This document shows, piece by piece, positions 8,273 to 55,973 of a stretch of 64,000 nt of DNA. The stretch lies in the IMG/VR virus record IMGVR_UViG_3300009165_000006, one strand, 5' to 3'. The stretch comes from a virus. The position numbers and the translations under genes are program-made. The notes under the pieces were generated by a model. The model saw only the letters and a program-made list of their open reading frames with translations. It made no database searches and was not told where the DNA came from. How positions within the stretch are numbered: the stretch's first letter is position 1; each line of letters opens with the position of its first letter.

Positions 8273-8282
8273 CGCGTAATAC
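8273..8282 (+). promoter_or_regulatory. CGCGTAATAC start-proximal motif
   Basis: CGCGTAATAC, then a 5-nt spacer (TGGGC), then the ATG at 8288. Member of the TGCGTAATA(G/C) motif family. Confidence 0.45.
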
Positions 8283-8287
8283 TGGGC

Positions 8288-9223
8288 ATGGCAAGCAACA
8301 TCAACTACAAGCAACTTCGGGATGGCACGTGGGGAGTTCAGGGGCGCAATCTTGTGACAGGCCGGACCGTGACGGTCACGAAGAAATCTGGTGAGACCAA
8401 GCAAGAAATAGTGGGAGAGATTGTTTGGAAAGGTACTGACGGCTTCTGCTACGCTAGAATTGCCGAACAGGGTGTTTCCTCTAAGTCTTCGACCCGTAGC
8501 AGCTCTACTCGAGGTAGTTCTACTCGTACCACTTCTACCCGGCGAAGCAGCCGGAAAAGCGGTAAGAAAGAGGGCGCCCAAGAGGGCAAATACTCATCAT
8601 CCCGCGAGGGCGATACGGGGGACGAGATCGGGAGAGTCTGCTTCCTCCGTGCGGGTGGAAACCGCATTCCAGTTGTTGTAGTGGGGTGGCAGACGGGCTA
8701 CTGTAGTGAAGATGGTCTCTCCTTTGGGTTACCAATGGATGATGGGTACTACACGGTTTCGTATTACAGAGACGCAACCGAGGAAGAGGCTACTGCACTT
8801 GCCTCCAAGGAAGCTGCTGCGAAGGCTGCGAAGGACTCAGCGGCCCAACAGGCCAAGGATGCTCGGATGGCAGCGGAGACGGCTGCTCGGGCACCTCTCG
8901 CAGGCCTTACGCGAAGTGATAGCTTGAGCACCCCTGCAGGTACCAAGACCTCGGTTGGTACCTACAAGAGTGAGCACGGGTGGGACATTAGCATCACCCG
9001 GGTCGAGATGGGTGATGCTAATGTGGTCTACATCGAGAGTGCCTACGGCTTCGACGACAGCCGAGAGTACCTCTGGGGCACTCCCGAGGTTCTTGCCACC
9101 CTCTACGAAGCCAGACTTGCTGAGCGTTCAATCAGCAAAGAAGAGGCTCAAGAGTACTTGTCCAAGTACTCGGGTTGCTATGGAGCAGACATCTACAAGT
9201 ACGTAGTCGCGCGAGGTGAGTGA
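8288..9223 (+). CDS. hypothetical protein with Ser/Thr/Arg-rich linker
   Basis: 311-aa ORF. Low-complexity SSTRSSSTRGSSTRTTSTRRSSRKS segment between two globular-looking halves. Confidence 0.7.
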   Translation: MASNINYKQLRDGTWGVQGRNLVTGRTVTVTKKSGETKQEIVGEIVWKGTDGFCYARIAEQGVSSKSSTRSSSTRGSSTRTTSTRRSSRKSGKKEGAQEGKYSSSREGDTGDEIGRVCFLRAGGNRIPVVVVGWQTGYCSEDGLSFGLPMDDGYYTVSYYRDATEEEATALASKEAAAKAAKDSAAQQAKDARMAAETAARAPLAGLTRSDSLSTPAGTKTSVGTYKSEHGWDISITRVEMGDANVVYIESAYGFDDSREYLWGTPEVLATLYEARLAERSISKEEAQEYLSKYSGCYGADIYKYVVARGE

Positions 9224-9275
9224 GAAGCTGCTCGATGCCTTGACTCCGCCCAGCACAACGGTGTAGCTGACTTCC

Positions 9276-9740
9276 ATGAAATCCACTGATCTTCTGAAGT
9301 TGGCTTGGAGCAAGATCGATCGACCTCATTCGATGTGTCCTGACATCGAGATTGGCTACGTTCGACGGGTGCTGGGTGAGGTAATGGCGGCCGAGATCAA
9401 GGACCGCGAGATCCTCGCCGAGGAATCCTATCGGTGGGTTTTTGGTCAACTCCTCGTGAGCCCCATGTCCCAGAGTAGTTTGGAGGATGATTGGTACGAG
9501 ACCAATCGAGTGTATCGGGAATGCATTCAACCACCCAACGACAATTACGAGGACGAGGGGTATCAGAAGGCCCTCAGCGACCAGTTCGAGGCTGAGGATC
9601 GGGAGAAGGAGCAACGGGCTGAGGAGGTCTCTGAAGCCCTCAGGTACCTCCTCACACGTGGACTAGTGGGTAGAGATCACGAAAGATACTTCGGCGATCC
9701 GGCAGCCTACCAGATGATGGTCAAGATGTCCTCGGTGTAG
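9276..9740 (+). CDS. hypothetical protein
   Basis: 154-aa acidic ORF. The antisense 9132..9614 ORF looks like a shadow. Confidence 0.6.
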   Translation: MKSTDLLKLAWSKIDRPHSMCPDIEIGYVRRVLGEVMAAEIKDREILAEESYRWVFGQLLVSPMSQSSLEDDWYETNRVYRECIQPPNDNYEDEGYQKALSDQFEAEDREKEQRAEEVSEALRYLLTRGLVGRDHERYFGDPAAYQMMVKMSSV

Positions 9741-9750
9741 CTAACTCGAT

Positions 9751-10338
9751 ATGAAGACCTATCGAGTTGAGTTATCTTCAGATGAAGGGCCTATTCGAAT
9801 TGAGTTACTAATTCGAGATTCGAATTCTACCCTTGAGCCACCTATCAGGAGATGCTTGATACTGAAGGCAAATGGGGTACCCGCATTGGAATACTGTGAC
9901 CAATTACAAGCTGGGGAGCAGCCCAACAGTTTTCGAGTGTTACTTACCCCTAACCCCATCGACTTGACTATGACCGTCGAGGACGAGGTGCTTGAATCCC
10001 AGGACCCCGTTGTCATAGATGGGCTTTATGGTAGGCGTGCGAGAATTAGTGGGGGAATACCTGCTGTTAGAAGAACTCGTGAGGAGTTTCTGGCCTCAAT
10101 GAGCGACGAGTATCGAGAGGCATACCTTACTAAAATTGCACAGAAAAGAGCTCAATATGTAAACCTTGAGGGTCAGTCCCTTTATCGAGTTAACTTAAAC
10201 GAGCTATGGTCCATTCCGGAAGGGATTCCAAGACCCCTTGACTCAAAGTTATTATTGGTTGCTCCGGCTGAGCTACCTCCAGTTGAAGATGGGCCTATCG
10301 TAGTCGAATTTGAATCATGGGAGGGTTCCGATGATTAA
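9751..10338 (+). CDS. hypothetical protein
   Basis: 195-aa ORF, ATG start. Confidence 0.6.
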   Translation: MKTYRVELSSDEGPIRIELLIRDSNSTLEPPIRRCLILKANGVPALEYCDQLQAGEQPNSFRVLLTPNPIDLTMTVEDEVLESQDPVVIDGLYGRRARISGGIPAVRRTREEFLASMSDEYREAYLTKIAQKRAQYVNLEGQSLYRVNLNELWSIPEGIPRPLDSKLLLVAPAELPPVEDGPIVVEFESWEGSDD

Positions 10339-10468
10339 CGGACAAGGCACGGGACTACGCCCCGAAACAGGGCCAATGTGTTTCGAAAGCGATTGGCGTG
10401 GAGTGTTCATCCGCGGGGACAACGCCTTTGGTGTAGCAAATACCCATGGCAAAAGAAGCTTCCTCTGA
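10331..10468 (+). CDS. small hypothetical protein (45 aa)
   Basis: ATG at 10331 overlaps the end of the previous gene (GATGATTAA). MINGQGTGLRPETGPMCFESDWRGVFIRGDNAFG... looks protein-like. Below the track length cut-off. Confidence 0.3.
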   Translation: MINGQGTGLRPETGPMCFESDWRGVFIRGDNAFGVANTHGKRSFL

Positions 10469-10661: not shown

Positions 10662-10699
10662 TGTTGACTATTACCTTCGTGCAGGTGTAGGTTTTTGCT

Positions 10700-10933
10700 A
10701 TGGCTACGCACGAAGAAGAACTCAGGAAGATCGTCGACAACATCGAACTACTCGAGGCCGAGCAAGAGTCCAACACTGAGGAGATGCAGCGAATCGTCCC
10801 TTTGGAGGGCCGTGACAAACGCTTGACGTACCTCAACAAGAGGAATGTGCACATCGAGAACGGCCTCAAGGAATTACACGAGAAGCGTAAGAGCAAGATC
10901 GAAGTTATCGAATGGGAACATCGAACTGGTTAA
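10700..10933 (+). CDS. hypothetical coiled-coil protein
   Basis: 77-aa Glu/Lys-rich ORF. Confidence 0.5.
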   Translation: MATHEEELRKIVDNIELLEAEQESNTEEMQRIVPLEGRDKRLTYLNKRNVHIENGLKELHEKRKSKIEVIEWEHRTG

Positions 10934-11411: not shown

Positions 11412-11448
11412 GTGTTGCCCTGACTTCGATGGTTTTGTCTCACTTAGC

Positions 11449-11916: not shown

Positions 11917-11952
11917 ATCGAATATTGCATGCCAAAGGTGGCGAAATCAACC

Positions 11953-12312
11953 CTAAAATGGCTCGGCAGTGGTTAAAATGATGATGCCTTCCAGCACCTG
12001 AGCCTCGGTGAGCTCCCAATCAACTTCTCGAGGGAGTCCAGCGATAACAGCTACCTTGAACTTCTGGTAGACCTCCAGGGCTTTCTCGTCGTCCCTTAGG
12101 ACGTCTGCGCAGATAGCCAGGGCGAGCTGGGCAGGCCCGCTTCCGGAATAGCCACACTCGAAACCGATCGAATGGTTCCGAAGATCGGAGCGTGGATCGA
12201 TCTTGTTTTCGACCTCACCAATTCGGACGAAAACTGACAGGATATCATCCTCATCACGTTCCCCTATGTAGACTTTCATGAGGTTAACCCCCCCTCCACT
12301 TGCAGGTTTCAT
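11953..12312 (-). CDS. hypothetical protein
   Basis: 119-aa ORF. The start is preceded by the TGCGTAATAC motif. Confidence 0.65.
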   Translation of the reverse strand: MKPASGGGVNLMKVYIGERDEDDILSVFVRIGEVENKIDPRSDLRNHSIGFECGYSGSGPAQLALAICADVLRDDEKALEVYQKFKVAVIAGLPREVDWELTEAQVLEGIIILTTAEPF

Positions 12313-12317
12313 ACTCT

Positions 12318-12327
12318 GTATTACGCA
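12318..12327 (-). promoter_or_regulatory. TGCGTAATAC start-proximal motif
   Basis: Minus strand reads TGCGTAATAC AGAGT ATG (ATG at 12312). Confidence 0.45.
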
Positions 12328-12426
12328 CTAGTCACGACAATCTCAATGACTTTTCAAGCTGCCAGTGCTTTTTTGTTGACTGCTAGGGTGATTCGAGTGC
12401 AATGAGGTGAAATCAGGCAGGTTTCT

Positions 12427-13960: not shown

Positions 13961-14104
13961 GCACAAGTAGGTTCTCTGCGGCATTCTGGTTACAAGAACT
14001 CTTGCGGATACTCGCTTGACACGTTGCCTAGATCCTGCTCTCCTTCTTGGTGACTCAATTGTTGAGTTCTAGCCTAGAAGGAATTCGGGGCGGGAAGGAA
14101 CACC

Positions 14105-15250: not shown

Positions 15251-15255
15251 TTTGG

Positions 15256-15519
15256 TCAGGTCACGGTACCTGCAATTTCTTTCTTGGCTACAGCTTGCAG
15301 GTACCGTATGACCAACCAATCGTCGACAACGTCCCCTGCTCTTAAGTATTGGGGGGCATCGGGTGGCACGTACTTAGTAAGTTCATCCTTGAAATTTTCA
15401 AGTTCCTCGGGTGTGAGGCCTTGTTTGGTTAGGTCAAAATCATTGTACCCATGAAGACAGAATTCACTAGCTGCATCATTCAGGATAGTCACTAAAACTT
15501 TCAATTGAGCACGATTCAT
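15256..15519 (-). CDS. hypothetical protein
   Basis: 87-aa ORF, ATG start. Confidence 0.55.
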   Translation of the reverse strand: MNRAQLKVLVTILNDAASEFCLHGYNDFDLTKQGLTPEELENFKDELTKYVPPDAPQYLRAGDVVDDWLVIRYLQAVAKKEIAGTVT

Positions 15520-15539
15520 TCCCCGGTGTACACCAGTTC

Positions 15540-15912: not shown

Positions 15913-16167
15913 CGGACATCCTCCGGGAGCCTCCCATAGGCCAGCTCACAGGCTTCCTCGTACTTCGTAGCCCGCTCAACCTCACCTTCGAGCCGGAGGC
16001 TCATGGCACACGACTTGTTGATGGCGTAGCAAGCTAGCGTCTCCATGATCCGGCGAGCGCCCTTCCGCTTCCCAGTGACAACGACGGCTTCCTTCTGGGT
16101 GGCGATGTGCCACCCAGAAGTCTCGGAGTTCTTCCCGGCTCATTGCGTCGAAGTTTGGGATTTCCAT
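15906..16167 (-). pseudogene. frameshifted paralog of 17545..17811
   Basis: MEIPNFDAMSREELRDFW matches MELTNLEAMTQDELRAFW. After FW, homology (WHIATQKEAVVVTGKRKGARRIMETLACYAINKSC...LPEDVRW*) continues in the +1 frame, and 5 nt are missing relative to the paralog. Confidence 0.6.
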
Positions 16168-16172
16168 GCCTT

Positions 16173-16182
16173 CTATTACGCA
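16173..16182 (-). promoter_or_regulatory. TGCGTAATAG start-proximal motif
   Basis: Minus strand reads TGCGTAATAG AAGGC ATG (ATG at 16167). Confidence 0.45.
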
Positions 16183-16382
16183 CCACCAGCAGAGAATTCA
16201 ACTGAATCTTTGCTACCCACCTCTCCCCATGGTATCATCTGGCTATGGATACTCGACGAAAAGACCACATCCAAAGAGGAGGTCGTGTATTCCTTCCCCT
16301 TTGGCGTATGAGACAGATTAAGTTCGAAGAGGCTGTACTCAATTCGATAGCCAAGCGCGAGGGATTGACTGGTAGTCTTCAT
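16176..16382 (-). CDS. possible ThiS/MoaD-like ubiquitin-fold protein (C-terminal ..AGGA)
   Basis: 68-aa ORF divergent from the E1-like gene. Its C-terminus IPWGEVGSKDSVEFSAGGA* resembles the ThiS/MoaD ending (..gD.V.f....GG). The stop lies inside the downstream TGCGTAATAG motif. It competes with + ORF 16245..16520. Confidence 0.3.
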   Translation of the reverse strand: MKTTSQSLALGYRIEYSLFELNLSHTPKGKEYTTSSLDVVFSSSIHSQMIPWGEVGSKDSVEFSAGGA

Positions 16383-17551: not shown

Positions 17552-17811
17552 CGGACGTCCTCCGGGAGCTTCTCGTACTGGATCTCGCAAGCCTGCTCAT
17601 AGGTCAGGGCAGGTTCAATCTGGCCTTCGAGACGAAGGCCGATAGTACACGATTTGTTGATGGCGTAGCAGGCTAGACTCTCCATGACCTTGCGAGCGTC
17701 TTTCCGGTCACCAAGGAAGAGGCCGGCCTCTTCCTTGGTGGTAACGTGCCACTTCGACCAAAAAGCTCGAAGCTCGTCTTGAGTCATGGCCTCGAGGTTT
17801 GTGAGTTCCAT
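17545..17811 (-). CDS. hypothetical protein (intact copy of duplicated module)
   Basis: 88-aa ORF preceded by the TGCGTAATAG motif. Paralog of 15906..16167. Confidence 0.65.
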   Translation of the reverse strand: MELTNLEAMTQDELRAFWSKWHVTTKEEAGLFLGDRKDARKVMESLACYAINKSCTIGLRLEGQIEPALTYEQACEIQYEKLPEDVRW

Positions 17812-17816
17812 ACGTT

Positions 17817-17826
17817 CTATTACGCA
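17817..17826 (-). promoter_or_regulatory. TGCGTAATAG start-proximal motif
   Basis: Minus strand reads TGCGTAATAG AACGT ATG (ATG at 17811). Confidence 0.45.
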
Positions 17827-17887
17827 CGATTGGGGTGAAACTCAACAAGCAATTGTCTGATTCCTAGGATTGGTGTAGGGTTGAAGC

Positions 17888-18202
17888 ATGGAATGTATTG
17901 ACCAGTCAACTTTGAACTCTGAACCAGATCTCGGAACTATCGCGCAGTTGAATCACGAGGGGGATACGACGTACACGTGGGACAAAACGAATGAAAACGA
18001 GTGCCGGGCCGCCGAGGCACACTTCAACCTGTTGAAGTCGAAAGGATTTCTCACCTTTAAGGTGAAACGTAGTAGACGTAAAAGTCCGGAAGAAGCATTT
18101 GATCCGAAAGCAGGCAAGTACGTCTACGTGGCCCCCGAAATAGCGACCACCCTTGACCCCAAGGCGGACTACGTAGTGACACCACAGATGCGAGGCGGGT
18201 GA
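17888..18202 (+). CDS. hypothetical protein
   Basis: 104-aa ORF, ATG start. Confidence 0.55.
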   Translation: MECIDQSTLNSEPDLGTIAQLNHEGDTTYTWDKTNENECRAAEAHFNLLKSKGFLTFKVKRSRRKSPEEAFDPKAGKYVYVAPEIATTLDPKADYVVTPQMRGG

Positions 18203-22451: not shown

Positions 22452-22514
22452 TTGAAATCAATCTCAGGTTATAGGAGTGGCTGCCACCTAAATTTCGATG
22501 GTGTATCAGCTACC

Positions 22515-23456
22515 ATGCCCTCTTCGTTGAGTAAAGCCCAAGCTTGTCTGCTGTGTCATGTGGTCGGAGACTCCCTTGGGAGCCTCGTAGAGTTCGAGTC
22601 CGAGGAGACCATCCTTCAGGAGCACCAAGGAGAAAAAGTGCGCTACCTCGCTGATGGGGGCACCTGGGAGACCTTGGCGGGGCAAGGCACAGACGATTCC
22701 GAAATGGCCATCACCCTAGCTAGGACTCTCATTCACCATGGTTTTTACAGCTCAACCATTATGCGGAGTATGTATTGCTATTGGCTCAATAGCCAACCAT
22801 TTGACGTTGGCAGGACCACTCAAAATGGACTCCTGGATATGCCTGACTTCCACAGCCAAGCCAATGGGGCTTTGATGCGTGTCGCCCCCTTGGGGATCTT
22901 TGGAGCGAAGAAGAAGGACTGGAGAAAGACCATGATCTGGGCGATGGAGGATGCCCTTATTACGCACCCAAATCAAATATGCTTACAAATCAATGCACTT
23001 TATGTATCGATGATCGATCAAGCAATCGGAAGTGATGCAAGCCCAGATCAACTCTACGGTGCGCTGGCCGCAACAGCAGTGGATATGGAAGCCCATCCAG
23101 TTATCCTCGAAGCTATCGACCGAGCTAGAACTGCCCCACCGGAAAACTACATGGTGAATATGGGTTGGGTTGTCCTCGCTTTCCAGAATGCGCTCTATCA
23201 ACTACTACACGCCCCGTCATTGACTGAAGGAATTGTCGATACCGTCAATCGCGGAGGTGATACCGATACCAACGGAGCAATTGCCGGTGCTCTGCTTGGG
23301 GCTGTTTACGGGATGGAGCAAGTCCCCAAGGATTGGATCGATGGAGTAACCCAATGTTGCCCATCGGTGACCAACCCCTACTCTAGAAAGCCACGTACAG
23401 GCTTCTTTTGGACTAATGATGTGCTAGAAGTAGCCAAAAAACTACTTGATAGTTGA
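22515..23456 (+). CDS. ADP-ribosylglycohydrolase family protein
   Basis: GDSLGSLVEF, GTDDSEMAITLA and GGDTDTNGAIAGALLGAVYG are classic DraG/ARH motifs. ATG at 22515 within track ORF 22443..23456. Confidence 0.85.
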   Translation: MPSSLSKAQACLLCHVVGDSLGSLVEFESEETILQEHQGEKVRYLADGGTWETLAGQGTDDSEMAITLARTLIHHGFYSSTIMRSMYCYWLNSQPFDVGRTTQNGLLDMPDFHSQANGALMRVAPLGIFGAKKKDWRKTMIWAMEDALITHPNQICLQINALYVSMIDQAIGSDASPDQLYGALAATAVDMEAHPVILEAIDRARTAPPENYMVNMGWVVLAFQNALYQLLHAPSLTEGIVDTVNRGGDTDTNGAIAGALLGAVYGMEQVPKDWIDGVTQCCPSVTNPYSRKPRTGFFWTNDVLEVAKKLLDS

Positions 23457-24791: not shown

Positions 24792-24843
24792 TTGGTAGGT
24801 TTTGTCATCCAGCTTCCACTTTGTAATCGGTGTAATTTTCAGA

Positions 24844-25092
24844 ATGAACAAAGAAAAGTACGGGTCCCCAGCTGAGGAACAAGCTACCAAGATCCTCGCA
24901 GGCATAAAGATCATTCAGAAGTATTACGCCAAGGTCTCACTGATAGGACTGGATAAGGGAGTGTTCGTCGGTCCCTGCTACGGCCCCAAGGACGCCCCGT
25001 ATCTAGATGCGGACGTGAAGGAGCTTCAGTCCCTAGGATGGAGTTGGAGTCAAGAACAAGGCGCCTGGGAGTTCTATACAGGTCATGGCTAA
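24844..25092 (+). CDS. hypothetical protein
   Basis: ATG at 24844 within track ORF 24802..25092. Confidence 0.5.
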   Translation: MNKEKYGSPAEEQATKILAGIKIIQKYYAKVSLIGLDKGVFVGPCYGPKDAPYLDADVKELQSLGWSWSQEQGAWEFYTGHG

Positions 25093-26819: not shown

Positions 26820-26898
26820 CCCTCTAGCCGAATTACTAGTCCTCGAACTAATTGGTTGAGAATGTAGAAGCCTGTGCGTAGTACATCGACATAAGTCT

Positions 26899-27291
26899 AT
26901 GCCGATACCTATCCACCAAGAATCAGATCCTGAGATTCCTCGAAACTCGGACCTGGAACGGTGCTGCATCTGCCGAGAACGAACGTCTTGGTGGACTTCC
27001 CTTCCAGACCGTAAACCCGGAGAGCAGGTGGCGATCTGCCCTCATTGTGCATCTCGAGGAAATCCCGAGGACGTCCCCTCGAAGTTGGTTTGGTGCCGGC
27101 GAGAAGACATCGCGTACCACCCGACTTTTGGTGACATCAGTCAAGGTCACGACCGAGAATACCCACCCGCGCCAATAGTTCAACCAGAGGCCAAGAATGA
27201 CCTACTACAGCGACCCAGTCAAAGACAGCGAAGCCCAAAGCATCGTAACTCAAATTCAGGCTCGACTCGCCGAAGTCGGACTCAAGTCTGA
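26899..27291 (+). CDS. Cys-rich hypothetical protein
   Basis: CCICR...CPHC motifs. The basic tail overlaps the next gene by 95 nt. Confidence 0.45.
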   Translation: MPIPIHQESDPEIPRNSDLERCCICRERTSWWTSLPDRKPGEQVAICPHCASRGNPEDVPSKLVWCRREDIAYHPTFGDISQGHDREYPPAPIVQPEAKNDLLQRPSQRQRSPKHRNSNSGSTRRSRTQV

Positions 27292-27997
27292 GATTACCAC
27301 CAACTGGTATCACTATCAGTTAACGGTAAAAGAGCCTCAAGATTACGTAGCATTTCAGGTTTTGGAGGGCGGACTTGAGAGTTTGGAGGGCGGACTTGAC
27401 CGCAAACTAATTGTGGTCTTTAGTACCATTAGGCTAAGTAATGACGGGGAGACCTTATACCATGGGGTCAACCTCAGAGAAGACCTGGAGAACTTCCATG
27501 AGAAGATATTCGATGAAGCCAAGCGCCAGAACGATTGGGTTAAGCAGAAGATACAACGGGAAGTTGAGAGCGCCGAAGCAATCCAAAGTTGCAATCGGAT
27601 CCTTCAACAACTAAAAAACGACTTCCCAACCTATGCCAAGTCCATATTGATTGGGCTGTCGTCTCCTGAGGGGCCTAAGTTCAGCTTGGGGCTCCACGGA
27701 CTTACGGAAGATCGGATCCGTCAAATTCTAAACCTGATCGGGTCACCTTCGATGTACGCAATAATTGGAATTTACTCTGATAAACCTACCATTTGGGGTA
27801 TCGGAGGCACTCCAGATGAGGCCCTAGCTGATGCTCAGAGTAACGGCTTCCAGATATCCAACTGGAGCATCATCCCAATCACCGACGATCAAGTTCGAAT
27901 GATCACCAAGAAGGGGGCCGAGGGTACGGATCCTAGAGCCATTGGAATCGAGCTAGCTGAAAAAGATTGGTTGAACTTAGGATACCGTCGCGCGTAA
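27197..27997 (+). CDS. hypothetical protein
   Basis: 266-aa ORF, ATG start. Confidence 0.65.
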   Translation: MTYYSDPVKDSEAQSIVTQIQARLAEVGLKSEITTNWYHYQLTVKEPQDYVAFQVLEGGLESLEGGLDRKLIVVFSTIRLSNDGETLYHGVNLREDLENFHEKIFDEAKRQNDWVKQKIQREVESAEAIQSCNRILQQLKNDFPTYAKSILIGLSSPEGPKFSLGLHGLTEDRIRQILNLIGSPSMYAIIGIYSDKPTIWGIGGTPDEALADAQSNGFQISNWSIIPITDDQVRMITKKGAEGTDPRAIGIELAEKDWLNLGYRRA

Positions 27998-28169
27998 TAG
28001 GTCCCATACCACTTCACGAACGCATTGCGAAAGCTCTAGGTTGGACGGTCAATGAGACCCAGAGCTTCTCGTTGGCTTCGTTAAGGGATCTGGTTCGTCC
28101 AATCTCTTTGAAGTTGGCCGCTGAGATCACTCAAGCCATCGAGACTGGATCCTACCTTGTAAGCTAATC

Positions 28170-33304: not shown

Positions 33305-33607
33305 CTACTCGGTGGGCTGAATCATAGCCCCTTCGGTATTCAGTACTGAGGGGGCTGTTGGTCTCTTACCTCTACAACACTTGCAACCCTTCTGCTTAAC
33401 TAGGTTGTTCGTCTGACGTACACTGACCGTCACGATGGCCCCACAGACGAGACAGAGAGCCTTCCAGAAGGACCAGTCAGCATTCGGTCCCTCTCCAGCG
33501 ATCTTGATCAGCTCGTAGGGGCCGAACACTTCCCCCTTGTGACGTTTCCTCGGGTCATAGTTTCTCTTGAGAATAAGGGGTTTTCTCTCATCTGTGGACA
33601 TCGACAT
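33305..33607 (-). CDS. Cys-rich hypothetical protein
   Basis: 100-aa ORF. CLVCG...CKCC motifs. Confidence 0.55.
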   Translation of the reverse strand: MSMSTDERKPLILKRNYDPRKRHKGEVFGPYELIKIAGEGPNADWSFWKALCLVCGAIVTVSVRQTNNLVKQKGCKCCRGKRPTAPSVLNTEGAMIQPTE

Positions 33608-33652
33608 GTGTGCTTACTACACCAATTGATGTGATGTCGAATCCGGAGACCT

Positions 33653-40016: not shown

Positions 40017-40028
40017 GATGAGGTCGTT

Positions 40029-41650: not shown

Positions 41651-41691
41651 GGGGACTCACCTATCAGGATGAGAGAGTACGTCTTTGTCAT
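41647..41691 (-). CDS. 14-codon upstream ORF (MTKTYSLILIGESP)
   Basis: ATG at 41691 sits 5 nt downstream of the CGCGTAATAC motif, the same architecture as full-length genes. TGA overlaps the ATG of 41354..41650. Confidence 0.3.
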   Translation of the reverse strand: MTKTYSLILIGESP

Positions 41692-41696
41692 ACTGG

Positions 41697-41706
41697 GTAT
41701 TACGCG
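41697..41706 (-). promoter_or_regulatory. CGCGTAATAC start-proximal motif
   Basis: Minus strand reads CGCGTAATAC CCAGT ATG (ATG at 41691). The motif contains the TAA stop of 41700..41942. Confidence 0.4.
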
Positions 41707-41942
41707 GCAGGCTTGGATTTCTCAACCACTCTCTTGGGCACCTTGGGGGCGTTCGCGAGCCAAGCCTCAACCTTAATCCGGAAGTCAATCCAAGCCTCAG
41801 TGTTACCCAGAGTCCAATTCTCGGTAGCGTGGTCAATGGTGCGTGCCATATGGATCAGGTCGATGACCGTTGGAAGGAGGAGCTTTCTATTGAGCTTGGC
41901 TGAGATCTCCTCAGCGGGCTTCAATCGTTTTAGGCGTTTCAT
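41700..41942 (-). CDS. hypothetical protein
   Basis: 80-aa ORF. Overlapping + strand ORFs look weaker. Confidence 0.5.
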   Translation of the reverse strand: MKRLKRLKPAEEISAKLNRKLLLPTVIDLIHMARTIDHATENWTLGNTEAWIDFRIKVEAWLANAPKVPKRVVEKSKPAA

Positions 41943-42977: not shown

Positions 42978-43026
42978 CAATCAACTTCCGGTGTAAAGAC
43001 CCACATGGATAAGGCTGAGCTGATCG
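42978..43026 (+). repeat. 48-nt duplicated 5' region, copy 2
   Basis: Same sequence as 38786..38833. Here it carries the functional ATG of 43005..43244. Confidence 0.7.
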
Positions 43027-43265: not shown

Positions 43266-43637
43266 TTATGGTTTCCAACCAGCAGGTGGTTGGAAACCAG
43301 CATCCTTAGCTTTCACGGCCCAATCAGGCCATGGACGTTCAACTCCCAGCAATGCAACGTTGGCAGCATCTAGCGCTTGCTGAGCGCGTTTCTTCGAGTT
43401 GAACTCGAAGACATCCTCTTTCGGGTCAATCGCGTAGGACCTAACAGCCTTCTGTGCTATCGTGAAATCGCGATCGTAGGTTTTAAAATCCCCCAAGGGG
43501 GCATCGGCCGGATCCGATCCTTCCTCTGCTTGAGGATAGTACCATCCGATGGCATATGCATGCCTCGTTTCAAAGAGAGCAAGAACCGCGCCATCCGAGG
43601 TGGTGTACTTTGGTTGCTTAGTAGCTTGCTTTGGCAT
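43266..43637 (-). CDS. hypothetical protein
   Basis: 123-aa ORF. TGCGTAATAG motif 11 nt upstream. Confidence 0.65.
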   Translation of the reverse strand: MPKQATKQPKYTTSDGAVLALFETRHAYAIGWYYPQAEEGSDPADAPLGDFKTYDRDFTIAQKAVRSYAIDPKEDVFEFNSKKRAQQALDAANVALLGVERPWPDWAVKAKDAGFQPPAGWKP

Positions 43638-43648
43638 ATGACGAAACC

Positions 43649-43658
43649 CTATTACGCA
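43649..43658 (-). promoter_or_regulatory. TGCGTAATAG start-proximal motif
   Basis: Minus strand reads TGCGTAATAG, then 11 nt, then ATG (43637). Confidence 0.4.
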
Positions 43659-43764
43659 CGAGATCTGGGGAACTCAATGAGAAAGTATACCGTTTAGCAA
43701 TGCCTACCGCTGCTTGGAGCTGGGGGCTGAACATCGTGGGATCGCTCGGTTTGGTAGGGGCTAA

Positions 43765-44484
43765 TCATCGCTCACTGCGTTGTATTAGCGGGCGAGAGCT
43801 CTCATTCCACAAGCCATCCAACCTTTGGATCTCTCGCCTGATAAGGGATACATTCTCATCGATCTCGGGCTTCAAGTACTTGAGGTACACTTCGCGTCTC
43901 TTACTGAGCCAGACCTCTTGGGCATCCTCATCATCCATGGGCCTCTTCCCGAAGGCACTCACCTCTTCTAGGATCTTGTCCCGATCAGGACCATACACCC
44001 AAAACAAAACATCCCCTTGATGGTCCACAGAGGAAGGGCCGATTCGAACACCCCATGGATCCACAGCCCAATGACGACGTCTCTTACTGAGGGACGCCTC
44101 CTGTTCTTCAGTGACTACTAGTACAGGAATGTTGTGAGCATCACAGTCATAGTTGTAGTAGGGGACCGCCTCTTGAAAGAGAACCAACTCTGAGCTGATA
44201 TCAGTTGACATCCTACTCTCTCGGTCCCCAACCTTAATCGCAATCCAACGAGTAACACTGTAGATGTAGTCTCGTTCGAATCCGAACATCCCCGATTGGT
44301 AATCAAATCCAATGGAAGTCGGACGTTTGAAGATGTCGTCGGTGGGGGGACTTGCCGATCCGTGCCATTCGTCAGGATTCTTTCCTGACACCTTGTCCCA
44401 AGACAAGAAGTTCTCCTCCATGAAACAGAAGAACTTCATCCTGAGTTTCTTATCCCCAATTGGAACGGATATTGAATAACCCAT
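43765..44484 (-). CDS. hypothetical protein
   Basis: 239-aa ORF, ATG start. Confidence 0.65.
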   Translation of the reverse strand: MGYSISVPIGDKKLRMKFFCFMEENFLSWDKVSGKNPDEWHGSASPPTDDIFKRPTSIGFDYQSGMFGFERDYIYSVTRWIAIKVGDRESRMSTDISSELVLFQEAVPYYNYDCDAHNIPVLVVTEEQEASLSKRRRHWAVDPWGVRIGPSSVDHQGDVLFWVYGPDRDKILEEVSAFGKRPMDDEDAQEVWLSKRREVYLKYLKPEIDENVSLIRREIQRLDGLWNESSRPLIQRSER

Positions 44485-44600
44485 CGAGGCAACTACACCA
44501 GGCTTTGGTGACTCCCCTTAGGATCGTAATGGTAGCCCACTTGTACCCCTATGTTATCTACCTCTTGACCAAGATAGTAAGACAGAGTACACCTACCTAC

Positions 44601-45249: not shown

Positions 45250-45520
45250 TGAACCTCGATAAGAACTATCGCACGCCTTGACTCCAGTGACGAACTGTGA
45301 ACCGCTTCAACCACTCTTACGCGCGAGCTTGTCTGAATCTCAACTAAATTGAGTATAGCCTTCCAAAAGACCGTTCTGTGAAACTTATTCAAAGTTGCTC
45401 ATAGGAGAACTCCGATGTTCACTTCCTGCTTCAACGAGACATGACTCGTAGGCCGAAGGGTTCTCCTTCGTTCCGCCGCTAGAGGACTCTCCACAGGCTT
45501 TTTAGCGCCGAAGGCGCCTA
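45250..45520 (-). ncRNA. predicted omega RNA (reRNA) region of the TnpB element
   Basis: By analogy with IS200/605 TnpB loci, the guide RNA scaffold overlaps the tnpB 3' end and the right end. The 154-nt non-coding stretch after the stop contains the hairpin CTCAA-CTAAA-TTGAG (45339-45353). Boundaries are not determinable by eye. Confidence 0.35.
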
Positions 45521-47903: not shown

Positions 47904-48941
47904 TCAACAACCCAAAGTGTCGACGATTCGGCTAATCTTCTGGACCTTGGACCGGAGCTGATCTTCGGCAGCCATTCGGGCCACGGATCGATCCTCATCG
48001 TTACCCTCGCACCACAGTTCAAGACCGTGCACGAAGATTTCGGTGTGCCACTTCCCACCTGTTTGCTTCTCGGAAAGAACAACATCCTCGTTCTGGTAGT
48101 GGCAATGAGTTGGGTTTACCGAGTGCATGGGTTGGTTCATCCATGTCGAGAACTCTGACTGTACTTTGGCTTTGCTCTTAGCGAGATCAGCATCGTCCTC
48201 ATCATCGTCATCGGACTCGTCACCCTCCTCGTCATCATCGTTCTCAGACTCATCATTCTTCCCCTCATCCTCATCAGACTCGTCGCTCATAGCTTGAAGA
48301 GCTTCTCCAAGATCTAGGGTATCATTTGAGGGGTCATCTCCGAGGATTGGGCTAATCTTCGCTTTGGTTGCTAGAGAGTACCTGCCCCTCACGGGGCAGA
48401 TGAACCGATTCTTGTGTGCCGAAAGTATATTACTTACTGAACTCCTTCGCTTGGGCATCCAACATCTCTTCTCCAGCCTAGTGCAAATCTCGCCGACGCT
48501 GAGAGTCTCAGTTCCAATGACATAGATTACCCTATCGAGTAACTTTTGAGGTTTTTCATCTTCCGACATCACAACTTCCTCCTCCACCGATACTGACACC
48601 TCTACCACAGGTGCCCGAGTATCGGAACTACTTACTGAGGTGGCGGGGCTCGTCGGGGTTAGCCCTGTCCCATTAAGCAGTTTCTTATGTTCAATCACGG
48701 CTATAGCGGTTGCCCTCCTTTCTTTCTCTTGCAACCGCCTCGCTTCAACGATTGCCAGCCTGCGGTCCGTGAACAAGCAGCTCTCGCTGGCCACGAATTC
48801 GTAATGGTCTTCAACTGAACGTACGGTCACAGGATCAGGAGGGGCATTCGTCGGCGAATGCCCTTCAGTACCAGCTTTTATGATGAAAACTGGTATGATC
48901 TGCCCCGTTCCCGCTATCCAGCGCATAGGGTGGGTAGTCAT
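47904..48941 (-). CDS. hypothetical protein with poly-acidic segment
   Basis: Track ORF 47904..48968 uses TTG. ATG at 48941 preferred, 8 nt after the TGCGTAATAA motif. Contains DESDEDEGKNDESENDDDEEGDESDDDDEDD. Confidence 0.7.
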   Translation of the reverse strand: MTTHPMRWIAGTGQIIPVFIIKAGTEGHSPTNAPPDPVTVRSVEDHYEFVASESCLFTDRRLAIVEARRLQEKERRATAIAVIEHKKLLNGTGLTPTSPATSVSSSDTRAPVVEVSVSVEEEVVMSEDEKPQKLLDRVIYVIGTETLSVGEICTRLEKRCWMPKRRSSVSNILSAHKNRFICPVRGRYSLATKAKISPILGDDPSNDTLDLGEALQAMSDESDEDEGKNDESENDDDEEGDESDDDDEDDADLAKSKAKVQSEFSTWMNQPMHSVNPTHCHYQNEDVVLSEKQTGGKWHTEIFVHGLELWCEGNDEDRSVARMAAEDQLRSKVQKISRIVDTLGC

Positions 48942-48949
48942 GCCCCGTG

Positions 48950-48959
48950 TTATTACGCA
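48950..48959 (-). promoter_or_regulatory. TGCGTAATAA start-proximal motif
   Basis: Minus strand reads TGCGTAATAA CACGGGGC ATG (ATG at 48941). Confidence 0.4.
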
Positions 48960-49055
48960 TAGATGCAAGAAAATTCAACAGAAATTGTCGAGTGGTGAAA
49001 TCTCCTACCTTGTACCCAATCGTGACCAGGCGCATCCTCGGTGTAGCCCATCTGA

Positions 49056-49541
49056 ATGGCACTCCTAGACTTCGTTCTCAGTGAAAATGAGAGCTACATC
49101 AACCGATCCTACTACCATTCGCACTGCGAAGAGCACGAAGCCTCCCGAGAGGAAGTCCTTCTGTGGCGTAAAGTGAAGGAGCTGGAAGCTATCCTTCAGA
49201 GCCTCCGACCTCAGGTTGTCAATGAGCTCCTAGCGGCTATCCCTAGGGATACTGAAAAGGTGTGGGTAAATGTCAGAAGCATGGAACTCCTGAAGAAGTA
49301 CGCTGGAGACCTAATCAGACAAGAGATCCTCTCTAGTATTGACAGCACCTACCAAGAGATCTGGGGATCAATTCAGGTCCTCTCCGACTATGACGAGGAG
49401 CCGCATACCATCTGGCTCGCGGTGGACCCAAACTTACCAGATGATGGGGTCAGCACTGAGAGAGCTTCCACGTACCTGACCCCGGTAATCGAAACTCTCC
49501 GATCTGCAATTGACCATCAGCCTGTTGAGGTGGATTCATAA
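49056..49541 (+). CDS. hypothetical protein
   Basis: 161-aa ORF, ATG start. Confidence 0.6.
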   Translation: MALLDFVLSENESYINRSYYHSHCEEHEASREEVLLWRKVKELEAILQSLRPQVVNELLAAIPRDTEKVWVNVRSMELLKKYAGDLIRQEILSSIDSTYQEIWGSIQVLSDYDEEPHTIWLAVDPNLPDDGVSTERASTYLTPVIETLRSAIDHQPVEVDS

Positions 49542-49803: not shown

Positions 49804-49805
49804 TT

Positions 49806-50233: not shown

Positions 50234-50269
50234 CACTACACCAAACTCAAACACGATTCTGGTGTAGTG
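50234..50269 (+). promoter_or_regulatory. 10-bp-stem hairpin upstream of the Cas-like operon
   Basis: CACTACACCA (50234-50243), a 16-nt loop, TGGTGTAGTG (50260-50269). Ends 22 nt before the GTG at 50292. Single copy in the window. Confidence 0.35.
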
Positions 50270-50291
50270 TACTGCGACGAATGAGGTGTGA

Positions 50292-52387: not shown

Positions 52388-52607
52388 TCTAGTAAGCTTC
52401 TGCGACGAACACTCGTGCCACAGAGAAGCGAAAATGATGGTAATTCGCGATGGTGCGTTCTTGTTTGCATTGCTCCGCAAACAGATCGAACTTCGCAAAG
52501 AAGAACGGGAGCGAGAGAAGCAGGAGCGAATCCTTGGGAAACTTACCAAGGAAGACATGTTGGCAGCAGCAGAAGAGAATGGATTGTTAGTTGAGGAAAC
52601 GGCATAA
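52137..52607 (+). CDS. Cas11-like small subunit candidate
   Basis: GTG at 52137 preceded by AAGGAGA (6-nt spacer). About 156 aa, helical and charged. Sits between the large-subunit-like and Cas7-like genes. Frame is +1 relative to the upstream ORF. Track ORF 52068..52607. Confidence 0.4.
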   Translation: MLKQEERKHLETLLVEMLLSIRDRYVKDKGGKVKPDYLEQIQNRARTSAEMSPTINRWVNELQIDLQMQSIDTWGSSASSTLLDLVSFCDEHSCHREAKMMVIRDGAFLFALLRKQIELRKEEREREKQERILGKLTKEDMLAAAEENGLLVEETA

Positions 52608-53590: not shown

Positions 53591-54240
53591 ACTACGAGCC
53601 AATCAAGGTCAGCTGCAAGCTTGCCGAGGGGTTCGTAATGCGAACCCCTACCGTGTTGGATTCACTATTGGCCGCAGTGATAGCAATGCGTGAGCAGTTG
53701 CCTACTCCGATATCCGAGGACGAAATCAAAGAGATCCCAGTACCCATTGACGAAGCTGCTGGGATTCGACTGTGCTCATCGGCCATGTTTGAGATAGAGG
53801 AGACATTCGGCTCATTTCGAACACGACGCCCACCAATCGAAGAATACTGCCACTTTGGAAAGCGTGGTGGTTCCGTATCGATTGCTAGTGGCCCCGACAA
53901 GCTCTATATGATGGAGTATGACTACCAGTTCGCAGTTGACGACAAAGTGACATGGTTTGCATTGGGAGACATTGTCAGTGTACACAACTTACTGACGGAT
54001 GTATTCTACCTCGGCAAACATCGCTCAATCGGCAAAGGGCGGATCATTGAAGGCTCATGGAAGGTTGAAAGCTGTAAACCCTGGGGTGAAGGGTTTCCGG
54101 TGGTTCATAACGGCACTCCGAAGCGTCCCTTGCCGTTAGGTTGGCCTGGCGTGGCCACGACAACCAGGACCGGTTACGCAACGTTACGACCCCCCTATTG
54201 GATGTACTCTCGTGAGGAAGCCTGCTTCCTCCCAGGATAG
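53587..54240 (+). CDS. Csf3/Cas5-like RAMP subunit
   Basis: N-terminus ..RTPTVLDSLLAAVIA (LDgLL-type block) and glycine-rich loop LGKHRSIGKGRI. 217 aa. GTGA overlap with the Cas7-like gene. Confidence 0.5.
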   Translation: MNYEPIKVSCKLAEGFVMRTPTVLDSLLAAVIAMREQLPTPISEDEIKEIPVPIDEAAGIRLCSSAMFEIEETFGSFRTRRPPIEEYCHFGKRGGSVSIASGPDKLYMMEYDYQFAVDDKVTWFALGDIVSVHNLLTDVFYLGKHRSIGKGRIIEGSWKVESCKPWGEGFPVVHNGTPKRPLPLGWPGVATTTRTGYATLRPPYWMYSREEACFLPG

Positions 54241-55701
54241 ATGAAAGCTCTAGCTTGCACGCTCGACACATGGGATGCCTTCGCAAGGGCCACCGGAAGA
54301 ACTGAGACCACCGGTCTCACGTTTCCCCTACGAATACTCGAGATTATCGGAAAGCCCTACGGACTAGAGCTCGAATACGCGAACAAACTGAACCGCCATG
54401 ACGCAGTGTTCATAGCGGTTCACGACTTTAGTTCGATGCTGTCCCTTGGAAAGGCGATGCAGAAGCTGAAATTGCCGCTACTTGCCAAAGACCGCGACCG
54501 AAGTCACCCGCTCGTATGGATGGGCGGACAAGGTACACGCAATCCGCTACCTATTGCCGATATTGCTGACTTGATAGTGCTTGGGGATGCAGAGCTCTCG
54601 CTGCCTCAATTACTCCAAATATGGGAGCGAAATGGGAACAGTAGAGAGTTCCTGGTGGGAGCGTCTACTGTCTCTGGGGTATTCGTTCCTTCGATCCACA
54701 ACGAAAATGAGGTGACCCTGAAAATGGGTTGGTCACCGGATATACGAACTTCACTTCAAAGCAGAAGCCTACCAATGGAACAGCATGCCAGAATCGAGCT
54801 CTCGCGTGGATGCAAGAGCAAGTGCTCATTCTGCGGACTCGGATGGATGGGTCCAGTTCGACATAACACCTTGGACGACGTACGGGATGCTATCCGAGGA
54901 GTGCCTTCGGTCCACCTGCAGGCTTGCGATGCCGAAGCTTACCCGGACATCGTTCGGTTGCGTGAGTGGATGCGCGAGAGAGGAATCAAAGACACCGGGT
55001 GTACCTCACGTCTCGATTCTAATTACGATGCTAGGAGCGAATTTCTATTCGACAAGTTGTTCAATTTCGGAATCGAGGCTGTGACCGAGCGTGTCCGCCG
55101 CAAAATCGGCAAGGCCAGACTAACGAACGACTTCATCGTTGAGGCTATGTGCGGGCTATACGAGAGACAGAAAACGCGGAAGGGTGAAGCCTGTGAGAAG
55201 ACCAATTGGCACATGATCTCTGGACTTCCGGGGGAGTTGGTATCTGAAACCGCGGAACTGGCGCAGACAATCCGAAGGCTCGATGCGACAATGCTGGAAC
55301 GGAGAATCACCGGGCAGCTAACGATCCGATGGCAACCGTTACTACCCTGTCCTGGGACACCACTGCAGTGGTGTCCCATTGGGCCGGATTGCGAGCCGTG
55401 GAGTAAGGCCTTGGCCAGAAACATCCGCAAAACGTACTGTCTGAAGCTAGAACATGGTTCCGGGAGACAGGAACGAAAGCACGCCCTGACCTGTATACTG
55501 ATGCGGTCAGGGCGTGTGGGGGCAAAGCTGATCGCACTTGAGTCAAAGTCTGCGGTTACCCCAGTTGCCGCGGTCGAGCTTACCGGGACGACTACCGGTA
55601 AGCTCGACCTTAGTGGTCCGCTTCCATGGGATTTCGTGCATGGTTACTACCCGCGAGGGGTGCTCGAAAAGGCCTACAAAAAGACCATACAATGCACGTA
55701 G
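54241..55701 (+). CDS. radical SAM enzyme with N-terminal B12-binding-like domain
   Basis: IELSRGCKSKCSFCGLGW gives CX3CX2C at 54811-54834 (aa 191-198). N-terminal VWMGGQGTRNP...DLIVLGDAELSLPQLL resembles the class B (cobalamin-domain) rSAM fold. The start abuts the Cas5-like stop. Confidence 0.8.
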   Translation: MKALACTLDTWDAFARATGRTETTGLTFPLRILEIIGKPYGLELEYANKLNRHDAVFIAVHDFSSMLSLGKAMQKLKLPLLAKDRDRSHPLVWMGGQGTRNPLPIADIADLIVLGDAELSLPQLLQIWERNGNSREFLVGASTVSGVFVPSIHNENEVTLKMGWSPDIRTSLQSRSLPMEQHARIELSRGCKSKCSFCGLGWMGPVRHNTLDDVRDAIRGVPSVHLQACDAEAYPDIVRLREWMRERGIKDTGCTSRLDSNYDARSEFLFDKLFNFGIEAVTERVRRKIGKARLTNDFIVEAMCGLYERQKTRKGEACEKTNWHMISGLPGELVSETAELAQTIRRLDATMLERRITGQLTIRWQPLLPCPGTPLQWCPIGPDCEPWSKALARNIRKTYCLKLEHGSGRQERKHALTCILMRSGRVGAKLIALESKSAVTPVAAVELTGTTTGKLDLSGPLPWDFVHGYYPRGVLEKAYKKTIQCT

Positions 55702-55715
55702 ACTGGAACGAGGAA

Positions 55716-55958
55716 TCAGTTAGATCGTTTTGGCGGAAGAAGCTCGTGAAAAACGAATCCATCCGTAGACTCTGTAAGAAACAGACGCATCCCCGGCTTC
55801 AATTCCGGGTACTTCGCCACATCCTCAGCGGTAATAGTGAACTTGAAAATCGTATCATCCACTTCGTCTGCCATACCCTTTTGGGCGCGTTCCCAAAAGT
55901 CAAGAACAAACTTGGGCTCTCCTTGAAACTTGTCAGTCAATCGATCTCCATTCAGCAT
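55716..55958 (-). CDS. hypothetical protein
   Basis: 80-aa ORF preceded by the TGCGTAATAG motif. Confidence 0.6.
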   Translation of the reverse strand: MLNGDRLTDKFQGEPKFVLDFWERAQKGMADEVDDTIFKFTITAEDVAKYPELKPGMRLFLTESTDGFVFHELLPPKRSN

Positions 55959-55963
55959 ACCCT

Positions 55964-55973
55964 CTATTACGCA
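55964..55973 (-). promoter_or_regulatory. TGCGTAATAG start-proximal motif
   Basis: Minus strand reads TGCGTAATAG AGGGT ATG (ATG at 55958). Confidence 0.45.

Follow-up and report, generated by a model that had tools for sequence, protein, structure and literature searches.

In Deinococcus-Thermus, leaderless messenger RNAs (mRNAs) are made from promoters whose -10 element lies next to the start codon; in D. radiodurans a TANNNT motif ~6-7 bp upstream of the start is found for ~30% of the open reading frames (ORFs), and such a leaderless promoter is stronger when a -35 element is added at 17 bp (PMC12340547). Here we describe a comparable arrangement in a 64,000-nucleotide (nt) stretch of viral DNA (IMG/VR virus record IMGVR_UViG_3300009165_000006; the whole stretch is called the window below), in which an earlier note, made from the letters alone, had pointed to a near-identical 10-nt box, TGCGTAATA followed by G or C, shortly before eight start codons. 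Leaderless promoters are likewise established in Actinobacteria. Among phages, the work of Sevostyanova et al. in 2007 on the Thermus phage phiYS40 reportedly found many middle and late genes to be leaderless, with promoters directly before the ATG and distinct temporal classes. Those promoters are said to be of the canonical -10 type and read by the host holoenzyme, while the consensus described here is non-canonical.

Like in D. radiodurans, the putative -10 element of the window lies a few bp from the start, there is no Shine-Dalgarno sequence at such genes, and leadered genes with a Shine-Dalgarno sequence coexist with them. Unlike the TANNNT motif, the consensus is TGCG-TAATA-S (S, G or C) or GGTGTA, lacks the final T, is much stricter, and belongs to a phage clade and not to a cellular genome. 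A survey of huge phages notes phage sigma-70 genes and does not mention leaderless promoters (PMC7162821). We found no paper describing this promoter in the literature, and a search with the motif string gave only primers and unrelated items. Leaderless promoters are a known kind; what is new here is the non-canonical sequence, the strict consensus, the presence of two classes and the uncultivated huge-phage clade in which they are found. Judging from the sequence, the box very probably acts as a promoter element from which leaderless mRNAs are made, and we take as probable the joint claim that it is the -10 element of a bipartite promoter of the sigma-70 family with such transcripts. Most likely, a huge phage carrying CasPhi and its uncultivated relatives use this arrangement widely.

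Architecture of the putative promoter

The exact 10-mer TGCGTAATAS occurs five times in the window (12318, 16173, 17817, 43649 and 55964, all on the minus strand) against 0.03 expected from dinucleotide-preserving shuffles, and the 9-mer TGCGTAATA with at most one mismatch occurs 17 times against 5.1 expected. The eight boxes of the earlier note are all present, with right coordinates and strands, and so are the spacers it gave between the 10-mer and the ATG: six sites have 5 nt, 48950 has 8 nt and 43649 has 11 nt. Their near-identity holds overall, with one-base departures at three of them. The boxes at 8273 and 41697 read CGCGTAATAC, with C as the first base, and that at 48950 reads TGCGTAATAA, with A and not G/C in the tenth position. 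A lone exact TGCGTAATA on the minus strand at 22958-22966, antisense within the ADP-ribosylglycohydrolase gene and with neither a -35 element nor an ATG, is probably a chance occurrence.

Apart from this lone copy, every site has TTGA(G/A) upstream, or TTTAG in one case, at a distance from the 9-mer of exactly 14 nt, or of 15 nt in three cases; the earlier note does not mention this -35-like element. Viewed as hexamers, the arrangement is TTGAGN and TAATAS separated by 17 bp at nine sites and by 18 bp at three, with TGCG before TAATAS, and SWGGGY and then the ATG after it. The full anatomy starts with an A/T-rich tract, followed by g-TTGAGA(TC) at about -34 to -29, a non-conserved spacer, (CTC)R-TGCG-TAATA-S, W-G-G-G-Y and the ATG. 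Counted as is done for the extracytoplasmic function (ECF) sigma factors, it reads TGAGA, 15-16 bp, CGTA. A weight matrix built from both halves, the -35 element and the box, and scanned over the 64 kb gave 12 bipartite sites with at least 22.6 bits, which we call class A, whereas shuffles gave 0-2 even at 14 bits; the information content of the class is ~25-30 bits. Four of the 12 are absent from the earlier note, namely 7331+, 26875+ (TGCGTAGTA), 27991+ and 45314- (CGCGTAAGA).

All 12 sites face a downstream ORF on the same strand and 10 are intergenic; the other two (27971-28000 and 41697-41725) coincide with the final codons of the gene before them. In the earlier note, the TAA within the box was given as the stop codon of two upstream genes. 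This stands for 41700..41942, while 16176..16382 is an open frame ending in the box whose coding status is not demonstrable; the same TAA also serves as the stop codon of 27197..27997, which had gone unnoticed. The mean pairwise identity among copies reaches 0.89 in the box, against 0.31 in the spacer and 0.25 and 0.26 in the upstream and downstream flanks, and the sole pair with similar flanks belongs to the paralogous small genes starting at 16167 and 17811. Since the copies are unrelated outside the two elements, class A is not a mobile repeat.

The position of the boxes is tied to that of the starts. An ATG lies exactly at +6 after TAATA in 6 of the 12 sites, compared with 1.6% per site by chance, and at +9, +12 and +15 once each. 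At the +6 sites the gap between TAATAS and the ATG is 5 bp, so that a Shine-Dalgarno sequence has no room there, as the earlier note had argued. The remaining three (7331+, 27991+ and 45314-) have leaders of ~45 to 165 nt, and because they keep the -35 partner but not the distance to the ATG, the box is a signal for transcription and not for translation. Internal genes of co-directional blocks have GAGG 8-12 nt before their starts (e.g., 40029, 40562, 52607 and 53587), which argues for an ordinary anti-Shine-Dalgarno sequence in the host.

In the mechanism that we propose, the RNA polymerase holoenzyme would melt the DNA at the GTA/TAATA core and transcription would begin at the A of the ATG, or within ~1 nt of it. 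A start at this position would leave the box outside the mRNA, which would have no 5' untranslated region and no Shine-Dalgarno sequence and would be translated as leaderless. Where the box is located farther from the start codon, an ordinary leadered mRNA would be made, sometimes with a GAGG Shine-Dalgarno sequence. Two promoter classes would operate in one CasPhi huge phage, class A, which is bipartite, and a class B (GGTGTA) without a -35 element.

Conservation in relatives and other metagenomic contigs

We scanned IMG/VR with the pattern TTGAG-N14-TGCGTAATA. The matches were mostly single and attributable to chance, together with a few contigs of ~50% G+C that carried the full architecture with the ATG at +6, one of them (L018) with 7 class A sites in 11 kb. 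None of these contigs could be aligned with the DNA of the window; proteins with 35-62% identity to those of the window are encoded by several. The gene starting at 8288, coding for 311 amino acids (aa), has an orthologue with 55.6% protein identity in L129, a 5.3-kb contig binned with an Omnitrophota metagenome-assembled genome (MAG) that is actually a phage fragment, and the promoter is kept. In the alignment of both upstream regions the conserved islands are the -35 element, the -10 element, the region of the ATG and one 11-nt block ~75 nt upstream. This block, CTAGGACGGTC, is found at 8203-8213 in the window and at ~1935-1945 in L129, outside the promoter proper, and may be a regulator site or belong to a hairpin terminating the upstream gene. 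No relatives of the 311-aa protein were found in IMG/VR or in the Joint Genome Institute (JGI) metagenomes. The divergent intergenic region 12313-12426 likewise keeps its class A promoter in another contig, L069.

An unbiased scan of the JGI metagenomes was carried out with TTGAGATC-N11-TGCGTAATA, a pattern that holds only the -35 and -10 elements and leaves out the ATG. The ATG was found exactly at +6 in 19 of the 46 unique sites (0.7 expected), and these 19 are those from contigs of 49-55% G+C, with a 443-kb contig having at least three. A contig of 297 kb carries both class A and class B. When all the family-like loci were pooled, the ATG was at +6 in 53 of 92 sites, with an interval S-W-G-G-G-Y. 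The tenth base of the box was G or C in 40 of the 53 and T in 4, and the base before the ATG was C or T in 50 of them. Bacterial RNA polymerase prefers to start at a purine (+1) preceded by a pyrimidine (-1), and the pyrimidine before the ATG fits this preference if transcripts begin at the start codon. A 14-nt leader with GAGG is present in L161 and L207, which, like the leadered sites of the window, speak for a transcription signal.

Of the two options given in the earlier note, a -10-like element with a TAATA core giving leaderless or near-leaderless mRNAs and an RNA-level initiation signal, the former is supported by the -35 element at a fixed spacing of 17-18 bp, the pyrimidine before the ATG in nearly all the +6 family sites, the mostly intergenic location, the leadered sites, and the conservation of the elements over a variable spacer before orthologous genes.

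A second promoter class

When the upstream regions of all ORFs were listed, a further and commoner motif appeared, cGGTGTA followed by 9-11 nt and the ATG, that we call class B. The hexamer GGTGTA occurs 43 times in the window and is followed by an ATG at +8 to +12 in 20 cases (7.6% expected by chance), 15 of which open ORFs of at least 60 codons. No conserved -35 element was found upstream of the class B sites in the window. Over 349 kb of DNA of the clade, 54 of 192 GGTGTA are followed by ATG at +9 to +11, with a strong preference for ATG as the start codon (ATG 54, GTG 20, against 9 expected for any triplet). Classes A and B have in common a G-Y-G-T-A core and also the spacing of GTA and ATG, which is 9 nt for class A and 9-11 nt for class B; in class B this leaves 5-7 bp from the -10 element to the ATG, counting TA plus 4. 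The two classes stand back to back in the divergent intergenic regions 17811/17888, 48941/49056 and 55958/56026. Of the two partial versions of the box listed in the earlier note, GTAGTAA before the ATG at 33607 turns out to be a different motif, a class B GGTGTA, and GTAATAA before 47340 fits neither class.

In huge phages of 45-60% G+C, class B is kept upstream of orthologous dCTP deaminase genes (L218, L219, L226 and L228), and sites outside the window were found in L151, L156, L157 and L217-L229. The late promoters of T4 (TATAAATA, read by gp55) are an analogue, from which class B differs in its GGTGTA sequence and in a placement that gives predicted leaderless transcripts. Palindromic pairs, TACACC..GGTGTA or GGTGTACACC, were seen in the window at 15525-15534 and 50237-50266 and in L151 at 2960-2972 and 14092-14106; they are two class B elements back to back, and in L151 divergent genes are served by them.

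Which sigma factor could read the box

Class A departs from the TANNNT pattern of primary sigma factors, as TAATAS has no T at -7, and a consensus scanner that requires this T finds none of the class A sites. For canonical TTGACA/TATAAT, the window has fewer matches (3) than expected (8.9). The CGT core typical of ECF -10 elements is present, as CGTAATA or CGTAGTA in 11 of the 12 sites and as CGTAAGA in the twelfth, while the ECF -35 motif AAC is not: the consensus is TTGAGA(TC), and TTGAAC is found only at 7312 and 27971. Promoters of ECF factors have a CGT -10 core, spacers of 14-17 bp and near-consensus sequences, as in TGAAAC-N16-CGTA of B. subtilis sigma-W (PMC5758882), and the -10 element of M. 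tuberculosis sigma-H is G-T-T-N-N-N-S (bioRxiv 10.1101/534826). The box, G-T-A-A-T-A-S, resembles the latter in having a conserved G/C four bases past the GTA. Class A is thus like the ECF systems in the CGTA core, the spacing of 15-16 bp between TGAGA and CGTA and the strict consensus. It is unlike them in the -35 element, GAGA(TC) and not AAC. Cognate ECF factors are usually encoded close by and control their own genes through the same promoter; the candidate sigma gene described next is apparently not autoregulated from class A and its product carries an HNH-like insertion.

This candidate was reached through relatives of the TnpB protein of the window, which led to a 90-kb phage contig encoding a 396-aa sigma-like protein. 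The family has 69 members among 5.8 billion proteins (proteins P0121-P0189; genes in L157, at 7855-9045, and in L217-L229), which come from contigs of up to 512 kb. Its homologues in IMG/VR, on contigs of 114-513 kb, show conserved synteny with genes for peptide deformylase and dCTP deaminase. A Sigma70_r2 match was obtained for 9 of 9 members tested; there is an HNH (ZRANB3-like) insertion between the halves of region 2, the C-terminus contains a LuxR-like helix-turn-helix, and region 2.3/2.4 (FKLYLARSVHNIYANWCRTR) is nearly invariant. The best match of the model of this sigma is to ECF sigma structures. The huge phages that encode it share genes with the class A contigs and carry class B sites. 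Several of the sigma genes, which have a GTG start, are preceded by a more canonical TTGACA/TATAAT-like sequence and a Shine-Dalgarno sequence, weakly suggesting that they may be expressed early by the host enzyme. Another sigma-like gene, which lies next to a class A copy in L141 (5461-6270), was considered as a member of the family and rejected (hhalign probability 0.7%).

The link between this sigma family and the box is circumstantial. Weighing the points for and against it, we lean slightly towards an ECF-like sigma encoded by the phage clade as the reader of class A, in preference to the primary sigma of the host. More tentatively, and with some doubt, we propose that this factor (a sigma-2 domain, the HNH insertion and a sigma-4-like helix-turn-helix) might redirect the host core enzyme to GYGTA promoters and make nearly every phage gene leaderless.

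Alternative explanations

Were the box an RNA signal for translation initiation standing in for a Shine-Dalgarno sequence, its location 5-11 nt before eight starts, with a gap too short for the latter, would be accounted for, but not the TTGAG 14 nt upstream across a non-conserved spacer, nor the sites with long leaders, ~45 to 165 nt from the next start. The GAGG at internal operon genes points to an ordinary anti-Shine-Dalgarno sequence, and no Rfam family matches; we consider this reading very improbable. We give hardly any credence to the box being a functionless leftover of duplicated segments or of a small mobile repeat. The genes at 16167 and 17811 are indeed paralogous, with downstream flanks 68% identical, but all the other flanks are at random identity (0.25-0.26), the downstream proteins are mutually unrelated and the motif is also present in contigs that do not resemble the window in nucleotide sequence. 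A different possibility is that the box is mainly the site of a phage repressor or activator that overlaps the promoters. The conservation does extend past the usual needs of a sigma factor, to CTC-R-TGCGTAATA and, in the relatives, to GATC after TTGA; still, the box is not palindromic, it keeps fixed distances from the -35 element and from the ATG alike, the interval offers no alternative -10 candidate if the box were only an operator, and class B has the same GYGTA core at the same distance from the ATG. A regulator site as the main function is therefore improbable.

The promoter could also be leaderless as proposed and yet be read by the primary sigma of the host. Class A would then be a set of strong early promoters tuned to the host, as those of T4 are to E. 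coli, with a phage factor reading class B. TTGAGA matches TTGACA at five of six positions, the 17-bp spacer is optimal and an UP-like A/T-rich tract lies upstream; the promoter is common to contigs with few genes in common, and its extended consensus occurs twice in the MAG CAWEUH01, once before a tyrosine integrase gene. In addition, neighbouring lipoprotein genes of CAWEUH01 carry GGCGTATA(G/C)T 11-13 nt before the ATG, with GCGTA in common with the box. On the other hand, the TAATAS has no T at -7 and the tenth base is G/C in ~75% of the sites, ~25-30 bits is far beyond housekeeping promoters, and a scan of 185,579 genomes stayed at the chance level (27 matches), none having many. The more canonical sequences upstream of several sigma genes of the clade also suggest, though weakly, that the host enzyme uses ordinary promoters. 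We regard the host primary sigma as a possible but rather unlikely reader.

Some observations weigh against the reading that we prefer, a leaderless promoter read by the sigma factor of the phage clade. We infer the start at the A of the ATG from geometry, and when TA is set at -12/-11 this A is the sixth base after the hexamer, the usual one being the seventh. Genes were called with a home-made score of codon usage. Searched with a profile of the phage sigma family, neither the window nor the class A contigs yielded a member; the 200 kb around the sigma genes hold class B only and no class A, and the sigma genes themselves have neither a class A nor a class B promoter. The TTGAGA is nearer to the primary-sigma TTGACA than to the ECF AAC, with TGAAC in only 2 of the 12 sites.

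Class A and class B sites of the window

On the plus strand, the class A site at 7312..7340 has TTGAAC (7312-7317), a 17-bp spacer and the box TACGTAATAG (7331-7340), and the ATG of a prepilin-like gene (MRNRVSRGFTVIE...) follows at 7393, with a leader of ~50 nt. The site at 8253..8290 has TTGAGT (8253-8258), an 18-bp spacer and CGCGTAATAC (8273-8282) before the ATG at 8288, and its gene is predicted to be leaderless. At 26856..26901 a variant with TTGAGA (26856-26861) and TGCGTAGTAC (26875-26884) precedes a 130-aa zinc-finger-like ORF (ATG 26899, leader ~9 nt). At 27971..28000, with TTGAAC (27971-27976), an 18-bp spacer and CGCGTAATAG (27991-28000), the transcript would have either a leader of ~165 nt to the gene at 28170 or a non-coding RNA as its product.

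The other sites are on the minus strand. At 12310..12346, TTGAGA (12346-12341) and TGCGTAATAC (12327-12318) lead to a predicted leaderless gene of 119 aa with a DUF6166 domain (ATG 12312). The sites at 16165..16201, with TTGAAT (16201-16196) and TGCGTAATAG (16182-16173), and at 17809..17845, with TTGAGT (17845-17840) and the same box (17826-17817), serve the paralogous pair: the former a 61-aa gene (ATG 16167), apparently a frameshifted paralogue of the latter (ATG 17811, 88 aa), whose promoter diverges from the class B one serving the gene at 17888. Divergent from the 16173 site, a canonical extended -10 promoter with a leaderless-type placement is seen on the plus strand at 16210-16247 (TTGCTA, 17 bp, TGgTATCAT, 6 nt, ATG 16245); it overlaps the doubtful ORF 16176..16382.

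At 41689..41725, TTGAGA (41725-41720) and CGCGTAATAC (41706-41697) precede an ATG at 41691 that opens an ORF of 14 codons (41647-41691) beginning at the predicted 5' end of the transcript. The TGA of this ORF overlaps (ATGA) the ATG at 41650 of a 98-aa gene, and the whole looks like a leaderless mini-ORF coupled to that gene. At 43635..43677 there are TTGAGT (43677-43672) and TGCGTAATAG (43658-43649), with a leader of ~6 nt to a 123-aa gene (ATG 43637). The variant at 45314..45343, with TTGAGA (45343-45338), an 18-bp spacer and CGCGTAAGAG (45323-45314), has a ~60-nt leader with a GAGG Shine-Dalgarno sequence before the ATG at 45244. The site at 48939..48978, with TTGAAT (48978-48973) and TGCGTAATAA (48959-48950), gives a leader of ~3 nt to a 345-aa gene (ATG 48941) and diverges from the class B promoter that serves the gene at 49056. 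The last, at 55956..55992, has TTTAGT (55992-55987) and TGCGTAATAG (55973-55964) before an 80-aa gene (ATG 55958), and this promoter is identical in the 120-kb relative L151.

The class B sites on the plus strand with 11 nt between GGTGTA and the ATG are 4583..4602 (ATG 4600, 160 aa) and 9734..9753 (ATG 9751, 195 aa). This distance is 10 nt at 9260..9278 (ATG 9276, 154 aa), 10430..10448 (ATG 10446, 71 aa), 10684..10702 (ATG 10700, 77 aa), 17872..17890 (ATG 17888, 104 aa), 49040..49058 (ATG 49056, 161 aa), 56010..56028 (ATG 56026, 151 aa) and 63899..63917 (ATG 63915), whose ORF leaves the window and is a thymidine kinase gene in L152. It is 9 nt at 22500..22517 (ATG 22515, the 313-aa ADP-ribosylglycohydrolase), 24829..24846 (ATG 24844, 82 aa), 42990..43007 (ATG 43005, 79 aa) and 57074..57091 (ATG 57089, 212 aa). 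Those on the minus strand are 15517..15534 (9 nt, ATG 15519, 87 aa), within the palindrome GGTGTACACC, 33605..33623 (10 nt, ATG 33607, 100 aa) and 44482..44499 (9 nt, ATG 44484, 239 aa).

Genome context and host

The window is metagenomic. Near-identical pieces of it are found in the JGI samples 3300009146, 3300027675 and 3300027693 and in SRR5468433, and the closest relative among the contigs compared is one of 120 kb (sample 3300081805), 97-98% identical over the shared parts; IMG/VR gave no match to an exact 40-mer taken from the window. An ORF at 1-1572, cut at the 5' side by the edge of the window, matches CasPhi-2 (7LYS; E 1.4e-91). It is followed by a CRISPR array at ~1605-1936 (within 1-1939) with five 37-nt repeats (GGATCCAATCCTTTTTGATTGCCCAATTCGTTGGGAC) and four spacers, which had no match among the loci compared. 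Cas12j/CasPhi has been reported from the Biggiephage clade of huge phages (PMC8298400). Because of the presence of CasPhi and the array, the window would come from a huge phage of the Biggiephage type, a putative membership based on CasPhi. The recognisable genes of the window code for an RNA ligase, a Tad2-like protein, ThiF, ADP-ribosylglycohydrolase, a CCA-adding enzyme and TnpB, and most of the others have no family match; thymidine kinase and NADAR genes lie just outside it, and the recognisable set is typical of large phages. No terminase was identified in the window, and among ~88 of its ORFs searched with Pfam and PHROGs there was none for a sigma factor, an RNA polymerase or a structural protein. 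The INPHARED phages gave no match to 20 kb in a megablast, nor did the Rfam and transfer RNA scans of the window find any, and a scan for intrinsic terminators no enrichment (10 against 9.7).

The genome-collection scan, with TTGAG-N14-TGCGTAATA-N6-ATG over the 185,579 species genomes, gave only chance-level matches and no genome with many copies; for this reason the box is not demonstrable as a host-type consensus, and the sole leads to a host are L129 and the MAG CAWEUH01. The two class A copies with the extended consensus in CAWEUH01 ('uncultured delta proteobacterium MFD01476.bin.3.99') are located on chromosomal contigs of 571 kb and 821 kb, one promoter each (L141 4500-7500 and L142 300-1400). 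One precedes the tyrosine integrase gene, which is split, and the other drives a small gene beside a Sigma70_r2 protein, a CopG-like gene and a class B site. They are probably integrated mobile relatives, and as such could be a lead to the host lineage. TnpB homologues were tried as pointers to the host and rejected, since the named matches are ~57% identical and belong to several phyla.

Some other features of the window can be mentioned. The IS605-type TnpB gene (45399-46643, minus strand) has GGTGTA 15 nt before its ATG. One copy, 93% identical, is on the 120-kb relative, and others, 66-70% identical, are on phage contigs of 297 kb and 90 kb, the latter having two; the element appears to be circulating in this group of phages. 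A co-directional block at 50292-55701 codes for RAMP-like proteins: that of 50292-51218 has a G-rich loop (GFGRIKVETI) at its end, phrog_22746 is matched by 52607-53590 and phrog_34599 by 53587-54240, with a radical SAM protein next. This block may be a Cas6/Cas7/Cas5-like module, a reading without Pfam support. Four tandem paralogues at 39267-41185 (plus strand) have alanine-/tryptophan-rich repeats and a C-terminal ...QL(A/T)DCR(E/D)WLL..., with no family match.

Implications

Gene finders based on Shine-Dalgarno sequences will miscall starts in these phages. In the window, the mechanical ORF list begins one gene at TTG 48968 where the promoter points to ATG 48941, and the prepilin-like gene at TTG 7285 and not at ATG 7393. 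The two motifs provide a simple rule for start codons and transcription units. The promoter consensuses and the rare sigma of the clade make a pair that is directly testable in vitro and a possible route to the host of the CasPhi phages, and the promoters would be compact parts from the phages that yielded CasPhi. If the sigma of the clade does read them, phage messages would be marked at both transcription and translation, and expression would be uncoupled from the promoter and Shine-Dalgarno rules of the host. This would amount to a phage-specific expression code, possibly alongside phage-encoded translation factors and peptide deformylase. The motifs suggest that, in an entire clade of huge phages reaching at least 443 kb, most genes are expressed singly, from short promoters and as leaderless mRNAs, with GAGG only at internal operon genes, and this bears on how huge phages take over the transcription and translation of their hosts.

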